In this document: piece after piece, positions 14,303 through 42,696 of the stretch
How positions within the stretch are numbered: position 1 is the stretch's first letter
Layout: the number at the start of each line of letters is the position of its first letter
NCBI GenBank assembly: GCA_963793425.1
Contig: CAWCAG010000005.1
Location: forward strand, 64,001 to 128,000
Direction of reading: 5' to 3'
DNA: 64,000 bases
Source: an uncultured cyanobacterium
Lineage (GTDB): Bacteria > Cyanobacteriota > Cyanobacteriia > Cyanobacteriales > CAWCAG01
Program-made: the position numbers and the translations under genes
The notes under the pieces: generated by a model
The model's input: only the letters and a program-made list of their open reading frames with translations
The model's database searches: none
Told to the model about the DNA's origin: nothing

Positions 14303-16024
14303 ATGCAAATAGTCAACCGCATTCATTTTAGAAATCTTAGGGGGGATATTTTCGGTGGTCTAACCGCCGCAGTTATTGCCCTACCTATGGCTCTCGCCTT
14401 CGGGGTAGCTTCTGGGGCAGGGCCAGCCGCTGGTCTTTATGGAGCCGTTTTAGTCGGCTTTTTTGCTGCCCTGTTTGGAGGGACTCCTACCCTCATTTCT
14501 GAACCTACAGGACCAATGACAGTGGTAATGACCGCTGTCATTGCTGACTTAATTGCAGATACTGACCCCGAAACAGGTTTAGCCATGGCTTTTACAGTAG
14601 TCATGCTAGCCGGGGTTATCCAAATCATCTTTGGGATATTACGTTTAGGTAAATACGTTACCCTAATGCCTTACACCGTAGTCTCAGGCTTTATGTCCGG
14701 GATCGGGATCATTCTGATTATCTTACAAATAGGGCCCTTTCTTGGTCAAGTAAGTCCTAAAGGAGGTGTGGTTGGTACGATCCAAAACTTGCCAGATTTA
14801 TTAGCTAACATCAATCCGGCTGAGTTAGCTTTGAGTGCTATTACCGTAGCCTTACTTGTCTTTACACCAAGTAAAATTAAGAAATTTTTGCCACCCCAGC
14901 TTTTAGCTTTAATCTTGGGAACAATTATTTCTCTAACTGTATTCGCGAATGCAGGTATTCGTCGTATTAGTGATATTGGTGAAATTCCTACTGGTTTACC
15001 ATCTTTACATGCACCAACTTTTAGCCCTGAGCAACTACAGTTGATGTTTGTTGATGCCTTAGTTTTAGGGATGCTTGGTTGTATTGATGCTTTGCTTACT
15101 TCTGTGGTTGCAGACAGTCTTACCCGTACCCAACACGATTCTGACAAAGAACTAATCGGTCAAGGACTTGGTAACATTGCTTCTGGGCTGTTTGGCGGTA
15201 TTGCTGGGGCTGGGGCCACAATGGGAACAGTGGTTAATATTCAAGCAGGAGGACGTACTGCTTTATCTGGTTTAACTCGTGCCTTTATTTTGATGGTTGT
15301 TGTCTTGGGGGCTGCTGGTTTAACAGAAAGTATTCCTTTAGCAGTCTTAGCCGGTATTGCCCTTAAAGTAGGTATTGATATCATTGACTGGGGTTTCTTG
15401 AAACGGGCTCACAAAGTTTCTTGGAAAGCAGCTATGATTATGTATGGGGTAATTATCCTCACGGTATTTGTTGACTTAATTGCGGCTGTTGGTGTTGGTG
15501 TTTTTGTTGCTAATATTTTAACTATCGAACGCTTAAGCAAACTACAATCCAATGACGTGAAAGCAATTACCGATGCTGATGATGTCATTCTCTTAGATGA
15601 AGAAGAGAAACGACTCCTCAATGCTGGGGATGGTCGTATTCTGATTTTTCACCTTGATGGACCAATGATTTTCGGTGTAGCTAAAGCTATTTCTAGGCAA
15701 CAAATAGCCATGGAAGATCACGATGTCTTAATTCTTGATTTAAGCGATGTACCGATATTAGGTGTAACTTCTTCTTTAGCGATTGAAAATACTATTCAAG
15801 AAGCTTGTGATAAAGGCCGTCATGTCTTTATTGTCGGAGCGACAGGAGCAATTAAGCGCCGTTTACAAAAGTTTGGTATTTTACAACTCTTACCACCCCA
15901 CAACTTGGTGGTAGACCGTATAGATGCTCTCAAACAGGCTGTTGCTTTAATTAAGGGATACGAACCAGATTTAGAGCCAGTAGTTGCTGATAGGAATATG
16001 GCTGGGGGTTCAACTGCTGTCTAA
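14303..16024 (+). CDS. bicA: SulP-family Na+-dependent bicarbonate transporter BicA
   Basis: NLRGDIFGGLTAAVIALPMALAFG, ISEPTGP, GAGATMGT, C-terminal STAS domain. Confidence 0.92.
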   Translation: MQIVNRIHFRNLRGDIFGGLTAAVIALPMALAFGVASGAGPAAGLYGAVLVGFFAALFGGTPTLISEPTGPMTVVMTAVIADLIADTDPETGLAMAFTVVMLAGVIQIIFGILRLGKYVTLMPYTVVSGFMSGIGIILIILQIGPFLGQVSPKGGVVGTIQNLPDLLANINPAELALSAITVALLVFTPSKIKKFLPPQLLALILGTIISLTVFANAGIRRISDIGEIPTGLPSLHAPTFSPEQLQLMFVDALVLGMLGCIDALLTSVVADSLTRTQHDSDKELIGQGLGNIASGLFGGIAGAGATMGTVVNIQAGGRTALSGLTRAFILMVVVLGAAGLTESIPLAVLAGIALKVGIDIIDWGFLKRAHKVSWKAAMIMYGVIILTVFVDLIAAVGVGVFVANILTIERLSKLQSNDVKAITDADDVILLDEEEKRLLNAGDGRILIFHLDGPMIFGVAKAISRQQIAMEDHDVLILDLSDVPILGVTSSLAIENTIQEACDKGRHVFIVGATGAIKRRLQKFGILQLLPPHNLVVDRIDALKQAVALIKGYEPDLEPVVADRNMAGGSTAV

Positions 16025-16220
16025 AAGCAGTTGATTTATTTTTGCTTATTTAAACCACTAACTTTTACCTTTCAATTACTCCCATATACTCCCGAATTCT
16101 TCCTCTCAATGTCACGGTATTTGTCACTAAGGCGTAGGTTTCTATTCAACAGCCGCGTGAGGTCTGGGCCAATACTTCTTCGCTGGTGTCAACGTCCCGC
16201 AGGTACGAAACACGGCCACC

Positions 16221-16249
16221 AAAAAGCCGGGGCATGACCCCGGCTTTTT
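16221..16249. terminator. Bidirectional intrinsic terminator between bicA and sbtB
   Basis: aaaaagccgggg-catga-ccccggcttttt. Confidence 0.85.
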
Positions 16250-16268
16250 GGGTCTGCTTCGTCTCAAT

Positions 16269-16634
<366 letters not shown>

Positions 16635-16746
16635 CTATATAGAAACTCAGGAAAACGGCAGCACCGCGCGCTATCGCGCTGATATTATAGTCGCCGCGTT
16701 GGTTGCCGGGCCAGGGGAGTACCGACAGACCGCGACCCGTCTGGGA

Positions 16747-17753
16747 TTAGCCGCCCATCAGCGCCTGGGCAAGCCCGATGTAGAGCGGTATTCCCAAGGC
16801 GATCGCAACCGGCGTGCCGATGGCTGTGGACGAGCCGATGTAGGCGGAGGGATTGGCCGACGGAATACCTGCCCGTAAAGTGGGCGGCCCTGAGATGTCT
16901 GAACTGGAGGCGGCGATGACGGCCAAGAGTACGACACCGCCAGCGCTGAATCCCGTGGCGTAGTGAGCAATCATGCCGAAACCGAAAGCGATGAACCCAT
17001 GCAGCAGCGGTGCCACAAAGGCATATACGGCGTACCACTGGGCTACCTTACGCAGCTCTTTAAGCCTTGCAGCGGCTTCCATACCCATAATCAGCATCAG
17101 TACCGAAAGCAAACCGCGAAAGAGGTAAGAGTAGAAGTCTTCATAAACCTCTCCCGGCTGGGTTATTAGGCCTAGCGCAAGCCCTAGCAGTAGTGCCGAT
17201 AGGGCAGAACCCTGGAGGCTTTCCTGCACGATGGGCCATACCCTAACCCGCTTGTTGGTGGTACCACGCTTCTTGCTGGTATAAATGCTGGCTAAGACGA
17301 TCGCAGTCACGAGCGCTGGGATGTCCATGAAGGGATAGAGGGCGGCGGCCCAGGGCCGTATGTCATGTTTTGCCCCTCCATCAGCGTCAGGGCAGCAGCG
17401 AGGGTAGAGCCACTCACGGCACCGAACAAGCCCGCAGTCGCGATGCCATCCTCGGTTTTGACGTTCGGCAGCTTGCACAATGTGTAGCGCCCGATGAACA
17501 CGATAAGGATTCCTATTACCACGGCGAACAGTGCGGGCAACAGTATCTCTCCCAGGTTGGCGTCGCGGATCGCCTGACCACCGGTCAGGCCAACTTTCAT
17601 GAGCAGCATGAAGACGATGAACTTATAGACCGGATCAGGAATTGATAGTCGGCTACCGAGGGAGGCAACGATTATACCGCCAATCAGAAAGCCGAGTGTC
17701 GGGGACTGCAACTGCTCCAGGAAGCGTGTTAAAAAATCGGACAGAAAATCCAC
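16747..17753 (-). pseudogene. sbtA: Na+-dependent bicarbonate transporter SbtA, split by a 1-nt frameshift (real or sequencing error)
   Basis: ORFs 17307-17753 (QLQSPTLGFL, GAVSGST) and 16747-17478 (YPFMDIPAL, SSDISGPP) join if one base is added near 17353-17355. Confidence 0.85.
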
Positions 17754-17964
17754 TTGTTATAATTCTCCTTGATCATATCTTAGGGGTCAGGACGGCAGGC
17801 AAGCGTGGCCTCGAATCCTGTGGGTAGCTAGCTCTACGCATCCAGATAAGCAGCGAGTCAACCCGCCACAGAGATTGCATCTGCATCCCGGTGCGTCGTG
17901 TGCTGGAAGATAAGGTTTCACTCTGGCGAGCGCAAATGATCGCGCTAATTCAGTGGTGATTCAT

Positions 17965-18033
17965 TAGACATCTCTAGAAAAGAGGGAACAGAGGGAAAGA
18001 ATTGATTTCATTTTCTATTATTGAAGATGTCTA
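17965..18033. repeat. Short MITE-like element with 9-bp terminal inverted repeats
   Basis: tagacatct...agatgtcta at the right edge of the high-GC segment. Confidence 0.5.
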
Positions 18034-37804: not shown

Positions 37805-38299
37805 AAGTGTCTCCTGTCTATTCTATAAAGACTATCTATATCGGTCATTAGTTGTAGCCTCCTGGTACAGCAGGCATCCTATCAGATTGCATCAGACGCA
37901 ATCAGTATTATTAACTTCACTGTAGACAACCAAATCGAAACCCTTGGTAGTTGCTCATTATTCTTTATACCCCTAGCTAAGAAAATTGTGTGTTCACTGA
38001 GATTGACAACTAATGAATGTACTCTAATTCGGCCTTTTTTAACGTTAATGGCGATCTGAGCAAATATGCTTAAACTTTTATACCATCTTTAAAGTTTTCT
38101 CTTCAGGTAATGCGATCCCACAGCAAAAGGTGATACCAAAACAATTTGATACCAAATCCGCTTACAAAACCCTACTCCTTACAAGTGTAGGTTTTTTACA
38201 TTTAGCGATTTTTTTGCTAGGGAGCTAAGGAGGTGGGGAGCTAGGGGGCTAGGGAGAAAACTAATAGCTAATAGCTATTAGCAACTAGCCAAAACGCAA

Positions 38300-38779
38300 T
38301 TAACAACGAAGAATCGACCATTGCTCAGGCTTAGACTTATTTACTACCTTCACATCTGCATAGGTTTTTATCCATAAACTCGCTCCACAATCTTTCGGCG
38401 TTTCCGGGCAATAATCGATCCGACAATAGCCGAATATCTCTAGTTCATGACCACGAATGCTCTTTGAACCATGTTTGACAGTTAGCACATCTTTCAAGGG
38501 TACTTCGGGCCCTTGCTCAACAATGGTTTTAGCGTTGGTAGTGATGTGGTTTTTATTCACATAAATAGTTTTTGGCCCCCGTCCCTTTAAAGTACTCCAA
38601 CGAGGTTTAGGTCCTCTTCTGCCGCGAGAAACCTTGGGTTTGTCACGATATAAAGGTATGACCCAGCCTGTGCGCTTTTTATAAGCCCCTTTAATACGTT
38701 GTTGTTGAAGCAAGTAGAGAACTCTTCTTTGAGAAACTCTCAAGATTTGGGCAGCGATGGAGGTGTTGACGTATTTCAT
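38300..38779 (-). CDS. Excisionase-like HTH DNA-binding protein with phage-like C-terminal domain
   Basis: AAQILRVSQRRVLYLLQQQRIKGAYK...WVIP; C-terminal IYVN...HELEI...CGASLWI. Confidence 0.65.
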   Translation of the reverse strand: MKYVNTSIAAQILRVSQRRVLYLLQQQRIKGAYKKRTGWVIPLYRDKPKVSRGRRGPKPRWSTLKGRGPKTIYVNKNHITTNAKTIVEQGPEVPLKDVLTVKHGSKSIRGHELEIFGYCRIDYCPETPKDCGASLWIKTYADVKVVNKSKPEQWSILRC

Positions 38780-38961
38780 GGCAGAATATGGCTGGAAAAC
38801 TATTCTAGTATTGTTTTGAGCAGGAAAAGCTATGAAAAAGACAATTCTTTTTTTAAACAGAGTTGCTATCTAGCTTAACTTTTTGTCTGTGGTTATGGAA
38901 GTATGTAGGGGCAACCCGTCTCTATTATTTTAGCTACGGGCAAATTAAACTAAATATAGTC

Positions 38962-38987
38962 AATGTTTAATGTTTAATGTTTAATGT
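38962..38987. repeat. Heptamer tandem repeat (aatgttt, about 4 units)
   Basis: aatgtttaatgtttaatgtttaatgtt. Confidence 0.8.
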
Positions 38988-39671
38988 TCATTGAGCAAGT
39001 AATTCAATTAGTTCATCCTTTTTCTTGTTGCTATAACCAGACATTCCTCGCTTTTTGGCCATCTTTTTCAGGTCTTTGTTTGTCATAGTGGTTAAGATTG
39101 CTGGATCTTTAATCACGTCAGGTAGAGGTTGAGGGGTTAGTTCAAAGACTTCTTTAAGGGTATCGAGTTTTTTCCCCTTGGTGATGCCACATTTAAGTTT
39201 TGGGATTTCGTTGAAGTTTTGCCAATATTGCCGAGGGGCTTCATCAATACGGTTTGTGGCTACAGCAAGTTTCACTCCCTTAAGAGGGCTACCGGGTTTT
39301 TCAATGAGATATTGTAAGGTTGCTTGAATTTCATCTCTGGTGGCTGTAGAAAGATTGATTTTGGGGATTATTTCCCCGGCAAGAGTTTTAGCTGATTGAG
39401 CAGTTTCTTCACTATCATCGGCGATAATACACCAAACCTTTTCTAAACCGGCTTCTTCTGCCACCGCGTAAATAAATAAGTTGGCGATCGCTTCATAACT
39501 ATCTTCCCCAGTTTCTTTCACAATTAAAGGAAGCCAATTTCTTCCCCCGCAATCATTAAGGGTTTTTGCTGTAGCTTTAATTAAAAATTCTGGGGCATCT
39601 GTCCCTGTACTTGGTTCAATTTCTTCCAGGTATAAGTACATCAAATTGCCAATATCGCTTAAGTTACTCAT
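38988..39671 (-). CDS. Degenerate ParB/Srx-like + HhH-like + Rho-N/SAP-like protein
   Basis: NWLPLIVKETGEDSYEAIAN...AGLEKVWCII; INLSTATRDEI; DLKKMAKKRGMSGYSNKKKDELIELL. Confidence 0.7.
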   Translation of the reverse strand: MSNLSDIGNLMYLYLEEIEPSTGTDAPEFLIKATAKTLNDCGGRNWLPLIVKETGEDSYEAIANLFIYAVAEEAGLEKVWCIIADDSEETAQSAKTLAGEIIPKINLSTATRDEIQATLQYLIEKPGSPLKGVKLAVATNRIDEAPRQYWQNFNEIPKLKCGITKGKKLDTLKEVFELTPQPLPDVIKDPAILTTMTNKDLKKMAKKRGMSGYSNKKKDELIELLAQ

Positions 39672-41014
39672 TGTAAAAAATACTCCTTCGCTAAGCTTAA
39701 GTAATAATCCCGTGCGGTTTTATTTTTGTAGGTAGCCGGGATACGAGAAAAGGCGGCATCAGCTATATGAGCGTAGCTTGGTACGTCGAAAATGTGAAGG
39801 TCTTTTTTAGATGAAGTATAACGGGGATAAAAATAGGGAAGCAAATCAAATTTATGCTCTTTCTTTGCTTTTTGGATGATGTCTTGTATTGCTTTGTTAG
39901 CTGTATTTCTAGCCGCATCAGTAATCTTTTCACCATTGAAGAAAATCGGCAGGGCAATCGGCCCTCCATCTTTACGCTTTTCTTGCACGTCTGAAATATA
40001 TTTACTGATAGCTACAGCAGCATTTTCTAATGAAAAAATATTGTTGTGTTTGGTAGGTATAAAAACCACATCTGCTGCATAGATGGCGCTAATACTAAAA
40101 AACCTCCAATTTGGAGGCGAATCAATTAAGATATAGTCGTATTGTGATTTCAAACTACCTAGAAACTGACGCAATCGAAAACGCTTAAGATTTTGCCTTA
40201 AATCATCTTCTCCCATGTTTGAAAATTCTTCGTTAGCCGGAATAACATCAAAAATAAAGTCCTTATTGAGTTTTTTGAAATGAATTTTATAAGGACGCAC
40301 TACATCCTCAAACGGAACTTGATTCTTTTTATCTGCTAAGCAAGAGTAAAAAGTTACTTTTCCTGGTTTAATGCCTAATGAGTTAGTTAAGTCTTGTTGG
40401 TTAGGATCAAAATCAACAACTAAAACCTTTTTTCCTTTAATTGCTAAGACAGAAGCAAGATTAACTGTAGTTGTTGTTTTGCCTACTCCCCCTTTATTAT
40501 TATAAACTGCAACCGTTAATGCCCTGGGAGTATTTTTAATATTATTGGCAATCTTTTGGACATTTTCATTAACATTATCCGTGGTGATTTCTAGACATTG
40601 GGTAGCAGGATAAATAACCTTACCGTGCTTTCTAAATAACTGAATATGAGACGAGTTGGTAATAATTCCCCACTGCACGCTTTTACAATTTGGCGATAAT
40701 AAATAACGACGAATTTGTTTAACCGTAGATTTATATTGAGAAGAACCTTCAGCAAGATTAACATCTTTACCCTTAAGCTCAACTAATACAGAAGGGTTAG
40801 CTTTAGTTTGGAGAAAGATATCATCCTGAGTATTATGACGCAGGGCATAATCAACTGCATCATTCCCCCTCCCTGTAGAATATTGAGGAACCCTTTCCAT
40901 AAGATCAAAACCAAGGGCATTGAGAAAATCTGGAATAAAAATCTGGTCTACAATTGCCTCTGGTTCACGGTTAGGTAAATTTAGCAATGTTTGTTTGAGG
41001 GCTTGGTCGTTCAT
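39668..41014 (-). CDS. HsdR N-terminal-like nuclease fused to ParA/Soj ATPase
   Basis: VDYAL...LVELK...QIRRY...GIITN; KGGVGKTT, VDFDP, ILIDSPP; ATGA overlap with the next gene. Confidence 0.85.
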   Translation of the reverse strand: MNDQALKQTLLNLPNREPEAIVDQIFIPDFLNALGFDLMERVPQYSTGRGNDAVDYALRHNTQDDIFLQTKANPSVLVELKGKDVNLAEGSSQYKSTVKQIRRYLLSPNCKSVQWGIITNSSHIQLFRKHGKVIYPATQCLEITTDNVNENVQKIANNIKNTPRALTVAVYNNKGGVGKTTTTVNLASVLAIKGKKVLVVDFDPNQQDLTNSLGIKPGKVTFYSCLADKKNQVPFEDVVRPYKIHFKKLNKDFIFDVIPANEEFSNMGEDDLRQNLKRFRLRQFLGSLKSQYDYILIDSPPNWRFFSISAIYAADVVFIPTKHNNIFSLENAAVAISKYISDVQEKRKDGGPIALPIFFNGEKITDAARNTANKAIQDIIQKAKKEHKFDLLPYFYPRYTSSKKDLHIFDVPSYAHIADAAFSRIPATYKNKTARDYYLSLAKEYFLQ

Positions 41015-41406
41015 AATTTAGTTACGTTTAACGAGCCTTAATCTTCTCTTATGATAGATATTTTATCTCATTATATTCACCACAGGTATTTATAAAAAGA
41101 GTAAAATAATCAAGGAAAAACACTGAAGAATTATTTTGCTAATCCCTCATTGTTATGAAAAGGACAAATTTTGCGATTCGCCAAAAACAAGTAGTCGTAC
41201 AAAATTGTTTGTCTATTTCTTGTTCATCTCTTCCCTTTCACAATATTTTTTCTGATCACAAATACAGTAGGGGTTTTCTCTAAAAAAATAGCTTGTATCA
41301 ACTAACTGACAAAGCTTCTAGAGATTTCCCCTCCGGACAGGGACAAAATCAGGAACAATTTGACAATATCTACCAAAATTTAACAACTAGCCATCAAAAA
41401 CCCAAA

Positions 41407-42696
41407 ATGATCCAAACATCAACCAAACTCCCCTCTTCCACCCATCAATTCGCCGATGTTATTCATCGCCTAGAAGCTGGTGGCTCAATGCTACCAGATA
41501 CTCCAGAAAACCTCATGCAGATCATCGGCATCTACAAAGCCTATGCTGTACCGATGGATTTTTACTGGCGAGACTTGCTTTATATCGCAGAAAGAATATT
41601 TCTCAAACCTCTGCCCTTCTTTAAATACTTCCTGCCCCAAGAATATTTAGACTTGCATAATCATTATGCTGGTGAAGATGCTGATTTAAGAATTTGGCGA
41701 GGAGAGGCAACCGCCCATCCTGAATTACTAGAGTTTATGGAAAAAGGGGAAACCGTCAAAATGCCCAAACTCTTCCATCATCTCTGGCATGATCGCATCA
41801 ATATGGAGTTTGCAGAAGCTTGTATGCGGGCAATGCTGTGGCATGGCAGGGATATGGACTTGGGTAAGTTTGATGCTTACCTTGATACTGATGAATACAA
41901 AGCTAACGCAGATAAGGCAATCAAAGCCTACTTTAAAAAAAATCCTGCCATGTTGGGGCTATATAAACTCTTCCCTGATATGTTCCTTGAACAAGTAAGG
42001 CAGCTATCCTACTACTCTAACCTAGGTTTATTCTGGGAAGTTATGGCTCCAGTCTTTTTTGAAATGTCTGATGTTTACGATGAAGGCGGGTTTAAAGGTG
42101 TCCCTGATGCGATGAACTTTTTGGTTAATGGCATTTTCGCTGTTGCAGGCAGACCAATTTACCACCATGCTTATATTGATGGGGAATGCTACGAAATTAT
42201 CCCCAAATCAAAGGGGTTTACCTGGTTATACGAAGCTGCATTACCCTACGTCGAAGCTGTCTTTTATCGCACTGCCCCTTTCCGTGGCACAAAGTCCTAC
42301 AATGCCCAAGCAAAACAAGTTCCTGAACAGCAAAAAGATTTCCACTACGGCATCTTATACGCTGATGTTTTCCCCGTTGGTACGGCAGGTATTCCCCCAA
42401 CATTATTAATGGATGATATGTATCATTTTCTGCCTGATTATCTTCAGGAATACTATCAAAAACATTGTCGAGGGGAAGAAGATATTTTGATTCAACTCGG
42501 AGTTACTTTTCAACGTTCAATGTACAACGTTACCTCCGCAGTAATCCAAGCATTGCGTCAAGCTTTGTTATATCCTTTAGATGACCAAAACCCCAAACAT
42601 TTACGCAAAAATCGCGCCTTTTTTGAATCGCAAATAGACCGTTTTTTGCGTCCTGAAGCTCGGTTAAAAGATATTCAATCTCAAGATTATCGGTAG
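41407..42696 (+). CDS. cupA: CO2 hydration protein CupA (ChpY)
   Basis: HRLEAGGSMLPDTPENL, HLWHDRINMEFAE, SYNAQA, GTAGIPPTLL; about 430 aa from ATG 41407. Confidence 0.92.
   Translation: MIQTSTKLPSSTHQFADVIHRLEAGGSMLPDTPENLMQIIGIYKAYAVPMDFYWRDLLYIAERIFLKPLPFFKYFLPQEYLDLHNHYAGEDADLRIWRGEATAHPELLEFMEKGETVKMPKLFHHLWHDRINMEFAEACMRAMLWHGRDMDLGKFDAYLDTDEYKANADKAIKAYFKKNPAMLGLYKLFPDMFLEQVRQLSYYSNLGLFWEVMAPVFFEMSDVYDEGGFKGVPDAMNFLVNGIFAVAGRPIYHHAYIDGECYEIIPKSKGFTWLYEAALPYVEAVFYRTAPFRGTKSYNAQAKQVPEQQKDFHYGILYADVFPVGTAGIPPTLLMDDMYHFLPDYLQEYYQKHCRGEEDILIQLGVTFQRSMYNVTSAVIQALRQALLYPLDDQNPKHLRKNRAFFESQIDRFLRPEARLKDIQSQDYR

Follow-up and report, generated by a model that had tools for sequence, protein, structure and literature searches.

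A cyanobacterial two-gene unit that couples a nuclease–ParA fusion to a ParB-fold partner lacking the CTP-binding arginines

ParA and ParB proteins are known as positioning machines. In type Ia ParABS systems, among them P1 ParA/ParB, SopA/SopB and RepA/RepB, a gene for a ParA ATPase with a deviant Walker A motif and an N-terminal extension is followed by a coupled gene for a ParB-fold protein, and in the presence of ATP ParA forms a sandwich dimer on DNA. The same layout is found in a 64-kb window (the whole stretch of DNA analysed, whose numbering is used throughout) from an uncultured cyanobacterium (GTDB Cyanobacteriales; CAWCAG01; GCA_963793425.1, contig CAWCAG010000005.1, positions 64,001-128,000). 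Here an open reading frame (ORF) of 448 codons (39668..41014; P0001) encodes a restriction-type nuclease domain fused to a ParA ATPase, and an ORF of 227 codons (38988..39671; P0002) encodes a ParB-fold partner; both genes and all of their features lie on the minus strand. The pair is genuine, occurs widely among cyanobacteria and seems not to have been described before. Its combination of a ParA fixed to a restriction-type nuclease with an invariant active site and a ParB fold without its CTP switch would extend the family to DNA cutting. Whatever its role, the pair is relevant to how polyploid cyanobacteria, usually without a chromosomal ParABS, handle and control their numerous replicons.

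The fusion is a ParA ATPase with a full set of ATP-cycle residues that carries an N-terminal PD-(D/E)XK domain with an intact, invariant catalytic set. Pfam assigns residues 167-346 to AAA_31 (E 1.6e-35; 123.1 bits against a cut-off of 27), and residues 46-127 match HSDR_N slightly below its cut-off (E 2.4e-5; 24.7 against 25.1 bits); with a sub-threshold match to HSDR_N_2 (E 1.9e-4) the HsdR-like region covers residues 46-129. An AlphaFold2 (AF2) model built on 51 sequences was confident and rigid (pLDDT 93, pTM 0.92), and its domains were compared with 48,161 Protein Data Bank (PDB) representatives using VIA-align. Residues 2-163 aligned with the N-terminal endonuclease domain of the type IIG enzyme BpuSI (3s1s; Z 13.2, root-mean-square deviation (rmsd) 3.1, 144 residues aligned), and residues 163-448 with ParA (8ray; Z 27.6, rmsd 2.6, 247 aligned) and McdA (6noo; Z 25.4). 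The nuclease head, of HsdR-N/BpuSI type, thus spans residues 1-163 (40526..41014) and displays D55 (within VDY), E79-L-K81, Q100-x3-Y104 and G116-IIT-N120. The ParA/Soj ATPase domain spans residues 164-448 (39671..40525) and displays the deviant Walker A motif K174GGVGK179T, D201-F-D203 and the Walker B residue D298. Both assignments bear out a first-pass annotation, made from the letters of this DNA alone, which had described an intact-looking HsdR-N-type PD-(D/E)XK centre joined to a ParA/Soj ATPase with the motif KGGVGKTT.

The nuclease residues are conserved across homologues. The full D55/E79/K81 set is present in 166 of 167 relatives (D55 and K81 in 167/167, E79 in 166/167 with a single D), and Q100 in 166/167; on the ATPase side the counts are 167/167 for K174, D201 and D203, 166/167 for K179 and 162/167 for D298 (five gaps). 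Since just 56 of the 448 positions reach 97% identity among these relatives, the catalytic residues are among the most constrained in the protein. Five plasmid-borne relatives with 25-57% identity keep E79, K81, G116, N120 and a PD motif, all of these being retained even at 25-34% identity. A search with the nuclease-head region returned 533 proteins at E≤1e-3, and 120/120 among the matches listed carry ParA-type Pfam domains. Database proteins matching the fusion numbered 3921, the best 120 being full-length and 56-92% identical, so the fusion is not a chance ORF. The best NCBIfam match was partition RepA (TIGR03453; residues 131-322, extending into the linker before Walker A; E 4.9e-24), with scores below the equivalog cut-offs both here (84.9 versus 348.45) and for SopA (41.8 versus 725). 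Protein language-model neighbours of the fusion include HSDR_N_2 and BpuSI_N clusters at 0.83-0.84, a lead only; otherwise such neighbours were clusters of the family itself, and no lead reached 0.9. A Rosetta-stone fusion of the two proteins was considered among longer relatives and rejected, as P0300 (614 aa) and P0314 (554 aa) have no similarity to the partner.

The partner is a ParB-fold protein without the CTP-binding arginines, and it shows a double helix-hairpin-helix (HhH2)-like domain and a SAP-like tail instead of a clear site-reading helix-turn-helix (HTH). By sequence alone little of this is visible: Rho_N is the sole Pfam match above cut-off (residues 193-223; E 1.2e-5, 25.6 against 24.9 bits), ParB_N matches weakly (E 0.008, 16.6 bits against a cut-off of 26.3), and the sequence profile found nothing in the PDB below E 0.1. 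The AF2 model (pLDDT 91.4) shows three domains. Foldseek matched it to ParB, Noc and KorB (best 7bnk, E 2e-7), in alignments to ParB/Noc that cover 225-246 columns, yet at an rmsd of 14-15. The first domain, residues 4-102 (39366..39662), has a ParB/Srx fold with invariant G8, N64 and W80, and in VIA-align its best scores were PadC (Z 10.7), KorB (10.3) and sulfiredoxin (10.1). When the partner was aligned by hhalign with the genome's own canonical ParB, YEAIANLFIYA paired with YELVAGERRYRA, placing ANLF where GERR would stand; the family consensus at this position is GNSF, or GNSFIYA in full (51 sequences), without a GERR/GxxR box. Residues 1-31 contain no K or R, and the conserved N-terminus reads LSDIGNL, with G8 and L10 invariant. 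The ParA-activating N-terminal peptide of ParB is given as LG-R/K-GL in a recent survey (bioRxiv 2025.10.10.680097). With ANLF in place of GERR and no arginine or lysine in its N-terminus, the partner keeps the ParB fold but appears to have lost the CTP switch, the arginine finger and a clear site-reading domain.

The middle domain of the partner, residues 103-180 (39132..39365; KLKCGITKGKKL), is (HhH)2-like and of ComEA type. Residues 100-180 align with ComEA (8dss and 2duy; Z 6.5, 61 aligned) and with the HhH regions of Tex and GspK (Z 5.5-6.4), all modest scores. The tail, residues 188-227 (38991..39110), is a Rho-N/SAP/LEM-like helix-extended-helix element that matches the Rho N-terminus (1a62; Z 6.5, rmsd 1.2) and the SAP domains of FAN1 and Ku70 (Z 4.6-4.9); it is missing from short plasmid partners. 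The first-pass annotation had named a ParB/Srx-like N-terminus, ANLF in place of the CTP-binding motif, an HhH-like segment and a Rho-N/SAP-like tail, and each of these was recovered, the HhH-like segment at modest similarity. Some partners elsewhere in the family are longer, at 260-320 aa, and contain the HhH2-like domain twice (P0124-P0273; G199, G339 and others). A ParB-like N-domain forms the C-terminus of some unrelated proteins, for example the Mu-type portal protein P0236 (968 aa), and precedes a GNAT domain in P0199.

At the junction of the two genes, ...TTACAATGAGTAAC... (also given as CAATGAGT), the TGA of the fusion falls inside the ATG of the partner, so that stop and start share the ATGA at 39668..39671, as the first-pass annotation had read; such an overlap points to translational coupling. 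The arrangement was compared at related loci, namely the best 80 among 140 relatives in species-representative genomes. At 78 of these 80 loci the fusion is immediately followed by the partner, the two misses being contig ends, and the 4-base (-4) overlap recurs in 52 of 73. Trees built separately for fusion and partner agree on two Nostocales clades (SH-aLRT support 99 and 94 for the fusion, 98 and 95 for the partner). Both genes are inherited as one unit. No third gene is conserved with them: none of the genes flanking the pair in the window recurs at the 80 loci, and 378 ORFs flanking the pair across genomes fall into 293 clusters, the largest with six members. The fusion is frameshifted beside an intact partner at two of the 80 loci (L069 and L073), and the reverse case was not seen among them.

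The partner family is small, with 188 clusters at E≤1e-3 among 1.84 billion representatives, and almost only cyanobacterial. Of 401 genomes sampled evenly across the phylum, 62 gave a match to the partner (49 at E≤1e-30), at frequencies that vary between families (18/26, 11/21 and 9/46, with 1/33 and 1/217 in small-genome families) and inside genera (15/19, 2/9 and 2/5). The pair lies on the main chromosome in at least 12 complete or near-complete genomes, and the present window holds one intact chromosomal member of the family. Eight PLSDB plasmids, some of them small and mobilisable, carry the pair or a variant with a shorter partner, and these plasmid copies have RelE/ParD pairs, resolvases and par genes in their vicinity. 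Of five inspected plasmids, four hold a separate ParA(+ParB) or ParM system nearby, with none seen within 5 kb on pLBA, which argues against the pair being the partition system of its replicon. Identity across orders is 45-78%. The tree clusters by order (20 label changes versus 32.8 in shuffles) and divides the Nostocales between two clades with good support, one of them lying among Leptolyngbya-type sequences, which suggests paralogy or transfer. Contigs labelled Tatlockia (Legionellales), Ignavibacteria and Actinomycetota hold typical cyanobacterial copies (L064, L055 and P0063), and L064 nests next to Chlorogloea at 100% support; cyanobacterial contigs were probably binned wrongly in these metagenome-assembled genomes.

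Canonical ParB_N domains were detected in 187 of the 401 cyanobacterial genomes, mostly on secondary contigs. In the present genome all three canonical ParA+ParB pairs lie on the small contigs C2 (62 kb) and C4 (45 kb), which are probably plasmids, and its large contigs hold just one borderline ParB_N match (C7:236299). A complementary distribution of the pair and canonical ParB was looked for across the sample and gave no clean pattern; weak ParB_N matches in carriers may be the partner itself.

In composition the pair differs from its surroundings. Its GC content is 38.9%, against 45.0% in the flanks, and is lower than that of the flanks at 66 of 69 loci; the density of HIP1 is a quarter of theirs (0.28 versus 1.06 per kb). 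GC at third codon positions is 31-33% versus 43.5%, and is lower for the two genes in 62 and 61 of 68 loci, giving AT-shifted codons in about 90% of hosts. Patchy presence, unrelated neighbours, AT-shifted codons and occurrence on plasmids that have their own par systems all speak for an accessory or mobile cassette; on the role of the pair as a whole the evidence is mixed. An empty-site comparison within genus g8 gave no site, synteny being too scrambled at 70-76% DNA identity.

How such a pair might work can be outlined from its domains. Its two genes may make up a complete cassette within the accessory gene pool of cyanobacteria, in which a restriction-type nuclease is placed under a ParA ATP switch. 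In the ATP-bound state two fusion molecules would form a sandwich dimer on DNA, bringing two nuclease heads together on one duplex and so licensing cutting. PD-(D/E)XK enzymes need two heads on a duplex for a double-strand cut. The partner, presumably bound to DNA without sequence preference, would dock on the ParA domain through its ParB fold or its conserved N-terminus and set the ATPase cycle by tuning hydrolysis or release, and hence where and when the nuclease is active. In this way the pair could restrict invading or rival DNA, or could hold its own replicon in the cell in an addiction-like manner. Our preferred, tentative reading is that the ParA ATP cycle gates the nuclease, that the ParB-fold partner controls it, and that the pair acts on replicons in conflict or surveillance rather than in partition, with a probability of roughly 0.4. 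This reading is ranked first because the catalytic centre is conserved, the pair behaves as accessory and looks foreign in composition, and on plasmids it is redundant with true par systems; a role in faithful partition is less likely. In a more specific and unlikely variant, the ParA sandwich would arm the nuclease on any coated DNA, and the non-CTP-clamping ParB-fold protein would decide which DNA is spared or attacked. If that were so, self and non-self would be told apart by a partition-like protein pattern, not by sequence or methylation, and cyanobacteria would possess an anti-plasmid/anti-phage (or replicon-addiction) logic without a described counterpart.

Several observations weigh against a role in conflict. 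The first-pass annotation had derived a defence or toxin-antitoxin function from the anatomy of the pair, and the anatomical part of that argument, namely an intact nuclease, a ParA, a partner without a CTP box and tight coupling, was upheld, but anatomy alone does not establish the function; a defence context was lacking, evolution was slow and the family kept to one phylum. Known defence systems usually cross phyla, and the confinement of this family to cyanobacteria therefore counts against a defence role. Enrichment in defence islands was not borne out, as none of the 136 immediate neighbours of the pair in other genomes belongs to an established defence system; defence-like matches among them were only four Uma2/PDC-S03 candidates and generic ATPase cross-hits. 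By Pfam these neighbours are mostly housekeeping genes, and about 22 are mobile or toxin-antitoxin-type small genes (Uma2, integrases, XisI, PIN, HicB) of kinds common in these genomes. The position of the pair beside glgP is stable within the genus. Compared with the same five genomes, identity is 54-63% for the fusion and 57-70% for the partner, against 63-65% for MutS2 and 70-73% for PGI, indicating slow evolution, and the ratio of nonsynonymous to synonymous substitution rates relative to the same-genus genome G401 is 0.147 for the fusion and 0.064 for the partner (glgP, 0.04), indicating purifying selection. In PADLOC-DB v2 (2023 library) no model matched the fusion over its full length, its only match being PDC-M28B over 58 residues at Walker A (E 1.8e-10), and the partner and the small neighbouring ORF P0003 matched 0 families.

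Much of this conservation would suit a non-canonical partition or positioning system, in which the fusion would form patterns on the nucleoid and, in polyploid cyanobacteria, the partner would mark plasmids or copies of the chromosome. The head with its nuclease fold would then be a DNA-binding or dimerisation module, or would resolve linked copies. Housekeeping-like conservation under purifying selection, the order of a ParA gene and a translationally coupled ParB-fold gene, partition RepA as the best NCBIfam match and the main-chromosome location in at least 12 complete or near-complete genomes all fit this explanation, as does the restriction of canonical ParB_N to fewer than half of the sampled genomes, mostly on secondary contigs, and here to C2 and C4. 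ParA systems with non-ParB adaptors exist as well, McdAB and HpaAB being examples. However, the partner has neither a CTP box nor a basic N-terminal peptide, and HhH2 is found where a clear HTH would be expected; a domain with a purely structural task would not be expected to keep its catalytic triad invariant; plasmids that carry the pair also have ordinary par systems; and presence is patchy within genera, with AT-shifted codon use. Nor was a conserved repeat or motif adjoining the operon found in the locus flanks. A k-mer search for operators or centromeres beside the operon returned only HIP1 and clade-specific words, with no k-mer common beyond close kin, and short tandem repeats within 400 nt downstream of the partner (29/74 flanks versus 13/73 upstream) have unrelated units and were counted without a background control. 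On this balance we consider positioning possible but doubtful.

The same slow evolution would also suit an ATP-driven structure-specific nuclease that serves to repair or recombine DNA, for instance in polyploid cyanobacteria of benthic habitats or those exposed to desiccation. A PD-(D/E)XK nuclease combined with HhH2 and SAP modules is reminiscent of XPF/Mus81 and FAN1-type enzymes, the partner domains match the HhH2 of ComEA and Tex and the SAP of FAN1 and Ku70, and the small-genome families of the sample are nearly devoid of the pair (1/33 and 1/217). Its mostly housekeeping neighbours include DnaB, UvrA, a methyladenine glycosylase and a spore photoproduct lyase, but each occurs once and no repair gene recurs; the HhH2 and SAP scores (Z 4.6-6.5) lie in a range where common arrangements also score; and copies on small mobilisable plasmids, foreign-looking composition and variable presence inside genera are hard to square with repair, which we regard as unlikely. 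Those plasmid copies, lying near RelE/ParD pairs, resolvases and par genes, would fit a classical toxin-antitoxin module, in which the nuclease–ParA would be a toxin that cuts DNA and a labile ParB-fold antitoxin would keep the carrying replicon stable. A compact, coupled two-gene cassette with unrelated neighbours has the right form, and a frameshifted fusion beside an intact partner at two of 80 loci, without the reverse, is in keeping with it, although both frameshifts may be assembly errors. Type II toxin-antitoxin pairs consist of much smaller proteins and do not usually place the toxin first, as would be the case here, and identities of 45-78% across orders are unusual for such modules; this explanation is quite improbable. 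Preference remains with a ParA-gated nuclease acting on replicons in conflict or surveillance.

The window is chromosomal cyanobacterial DNA, lying within a 2.17-Mb contig of a 5.28-Mb genome that is 98.6% complete. The genes flanking the pair are housekeeping genes (glgP, ChpXY, MutS2, PGI, SurE and similar), and, in agreement with the first-pass annotation, no methyltransferase, hsdS or replication gene was found in the 16 ORFs between 26981 and 53395. In G401 the pair is 92% identical and also lies beside glgP. The blastn alignment of the pair between the window and that genome spans 38998-41080, where synteny stops, and the 66 bp upstream of the fusion start (41015..41080, minus strand), which still travel with the pair in G401, are a probable promoter or leader. 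A single promoter-like hexamer pair lies farther upstream at 41159-41130 and is not above shuffled-sequence expectation. ChpXY (41293-42696) faces the pair in the window, its ORF having an N-terminal extension from a TTG start, and in G401 it is found on another contig, after two long same-strand ORFs (620 and 499 aa). The loss of synteny 66 bp before the fusion start and the different location of ChpXY in G401 indicate a rearrangement breakpoint at 41080-41293. A link to McdAB and carboxysomes through the ChpXY neighbour was rejected, since the adjacency recurs at 0 of 80 loci and is absent in G401 too.

On the other side of the pair lies P0003 (38300-38779, minus strand), a 159-aa ORF with a weak HTH_17 match (E 0.006). 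Its family is dispersed, with 22 matches in this genome at 44-100% identity, and G401 lacks about 780 bp holding P0003 at the glgP-pair junction, the extra stretch in the window being 38081-38998; it looks like a small multi-copy gene, possibly mobile. As a third gene of the module P0003 was rejected, as it has no homologue beside the pair in the 80 loci, is absent at the G401 site and belongs to a dispersed family. Starting at the stop codon of the partner, about 3.7 copies of the heptamer ACATTAA follow one another (38962-38993). An imperfect 19-nt direct repeat (84% identical; 38831-38849 and 41154-41172) brackets the pair, but it was not found at 73 other loci and is probably due to chance. 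Rfam gave 0 matches in the window. One bin, 16001-18000, has 54% GC compared with 40% in the window, with several overlapping ORFs on both strands in and beside it (16248-17753), again without an Rfam match.

Current annotations of the family include 'AAA family ATPase', 'cobyrinic acid a,c-diamide synthase', 'cellulose biosynthesis protein BcsQ' and 'Rho termination factor N-terminal domain-containing protein', names that hide it from surveys. The first-pass annotation had taken the pair for a candidate undescribed system, and this still stands: beyond the short PADLOC match at Walker A no characterised system corresponds to it, and no published description was found in the literature searched, although the supplements of the ParB-CTPase survey might list such proteins. 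The pair is short, its catalytic residues are clear targets for mutation and culturable strains carry it, making it directly testable.

Compared with described systems, the nuclease head is closest to HsdR and type IIG enzymes (BpuSI 3s1s, HSDR_N, HSDR_N_2), sharing with them the PD-(D/E)XK fold with D...ExK, QxxxY and GxxTN. No superfamily 2 (SF2) motor, methyltransferase or specificity subunit is present in the fusion by Pfam or in the 16 surrounding ORFs, and the ATPase of the fusion is a ParA dimer switch whereas that of HsdR is a translocase. With OLD/Gabija-, Septu- and Wadjet/MksG-type defence and with PDC-M28 the pair shares the logic of an NTPase controlling a DNA nuclease. The ATPases of the OLD/Gabija-, Septu- and Wadjet/MksG-type systems are of ABC, SMC or OLD type and differ from the ParA/MinD class. 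Carboxysome positioning by McdA/McdB likewise joins a cyanobacterial ParA-family ATPase, here among the best fold matches, to a non-ParB partner; McdA has no nuclease head, and McdB does not have a ParB fold.

On the partner side, the nearest proteins are those in which a ParB/Srx fold serves outside partition, PadC, Noc and KorB, of which PadC matches residues 4-102 best and KorB next. They keep the nucleotide-binding pocket, whereas here its arginines are replaced. PadC is described in the ParB-CTPase survey as a ParB-like protein that recruits ParA, and that survey selected its proteins at Pfam gathering cut-offs (bioRxiv 2025.10.10.680097), so that the partner, at 16.6 bits, would have been missed. 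The ParB of ParABS has a GERR CTP box, a basic N-terminal peptide, an HTH and a dimerisation domain; the partner has neither of the first two and shows an HhH2 domain and a SAP-like tail rather than the others. The parS-like repeats of ParABS had no equivalent beside the operon in the k-mer and repeat searches of locus flanks. In type Ia ParA the N-terminal extension is an HTH or winged-helix domain, and in the fusion a restriction-type nuclease stands in its place. Taken together, these comparisons indicate that the pair most resembles a type Ia ParA/ParB cassette in which an HsdR/type IIG nuclease domain has taken the place of the regulatory head.

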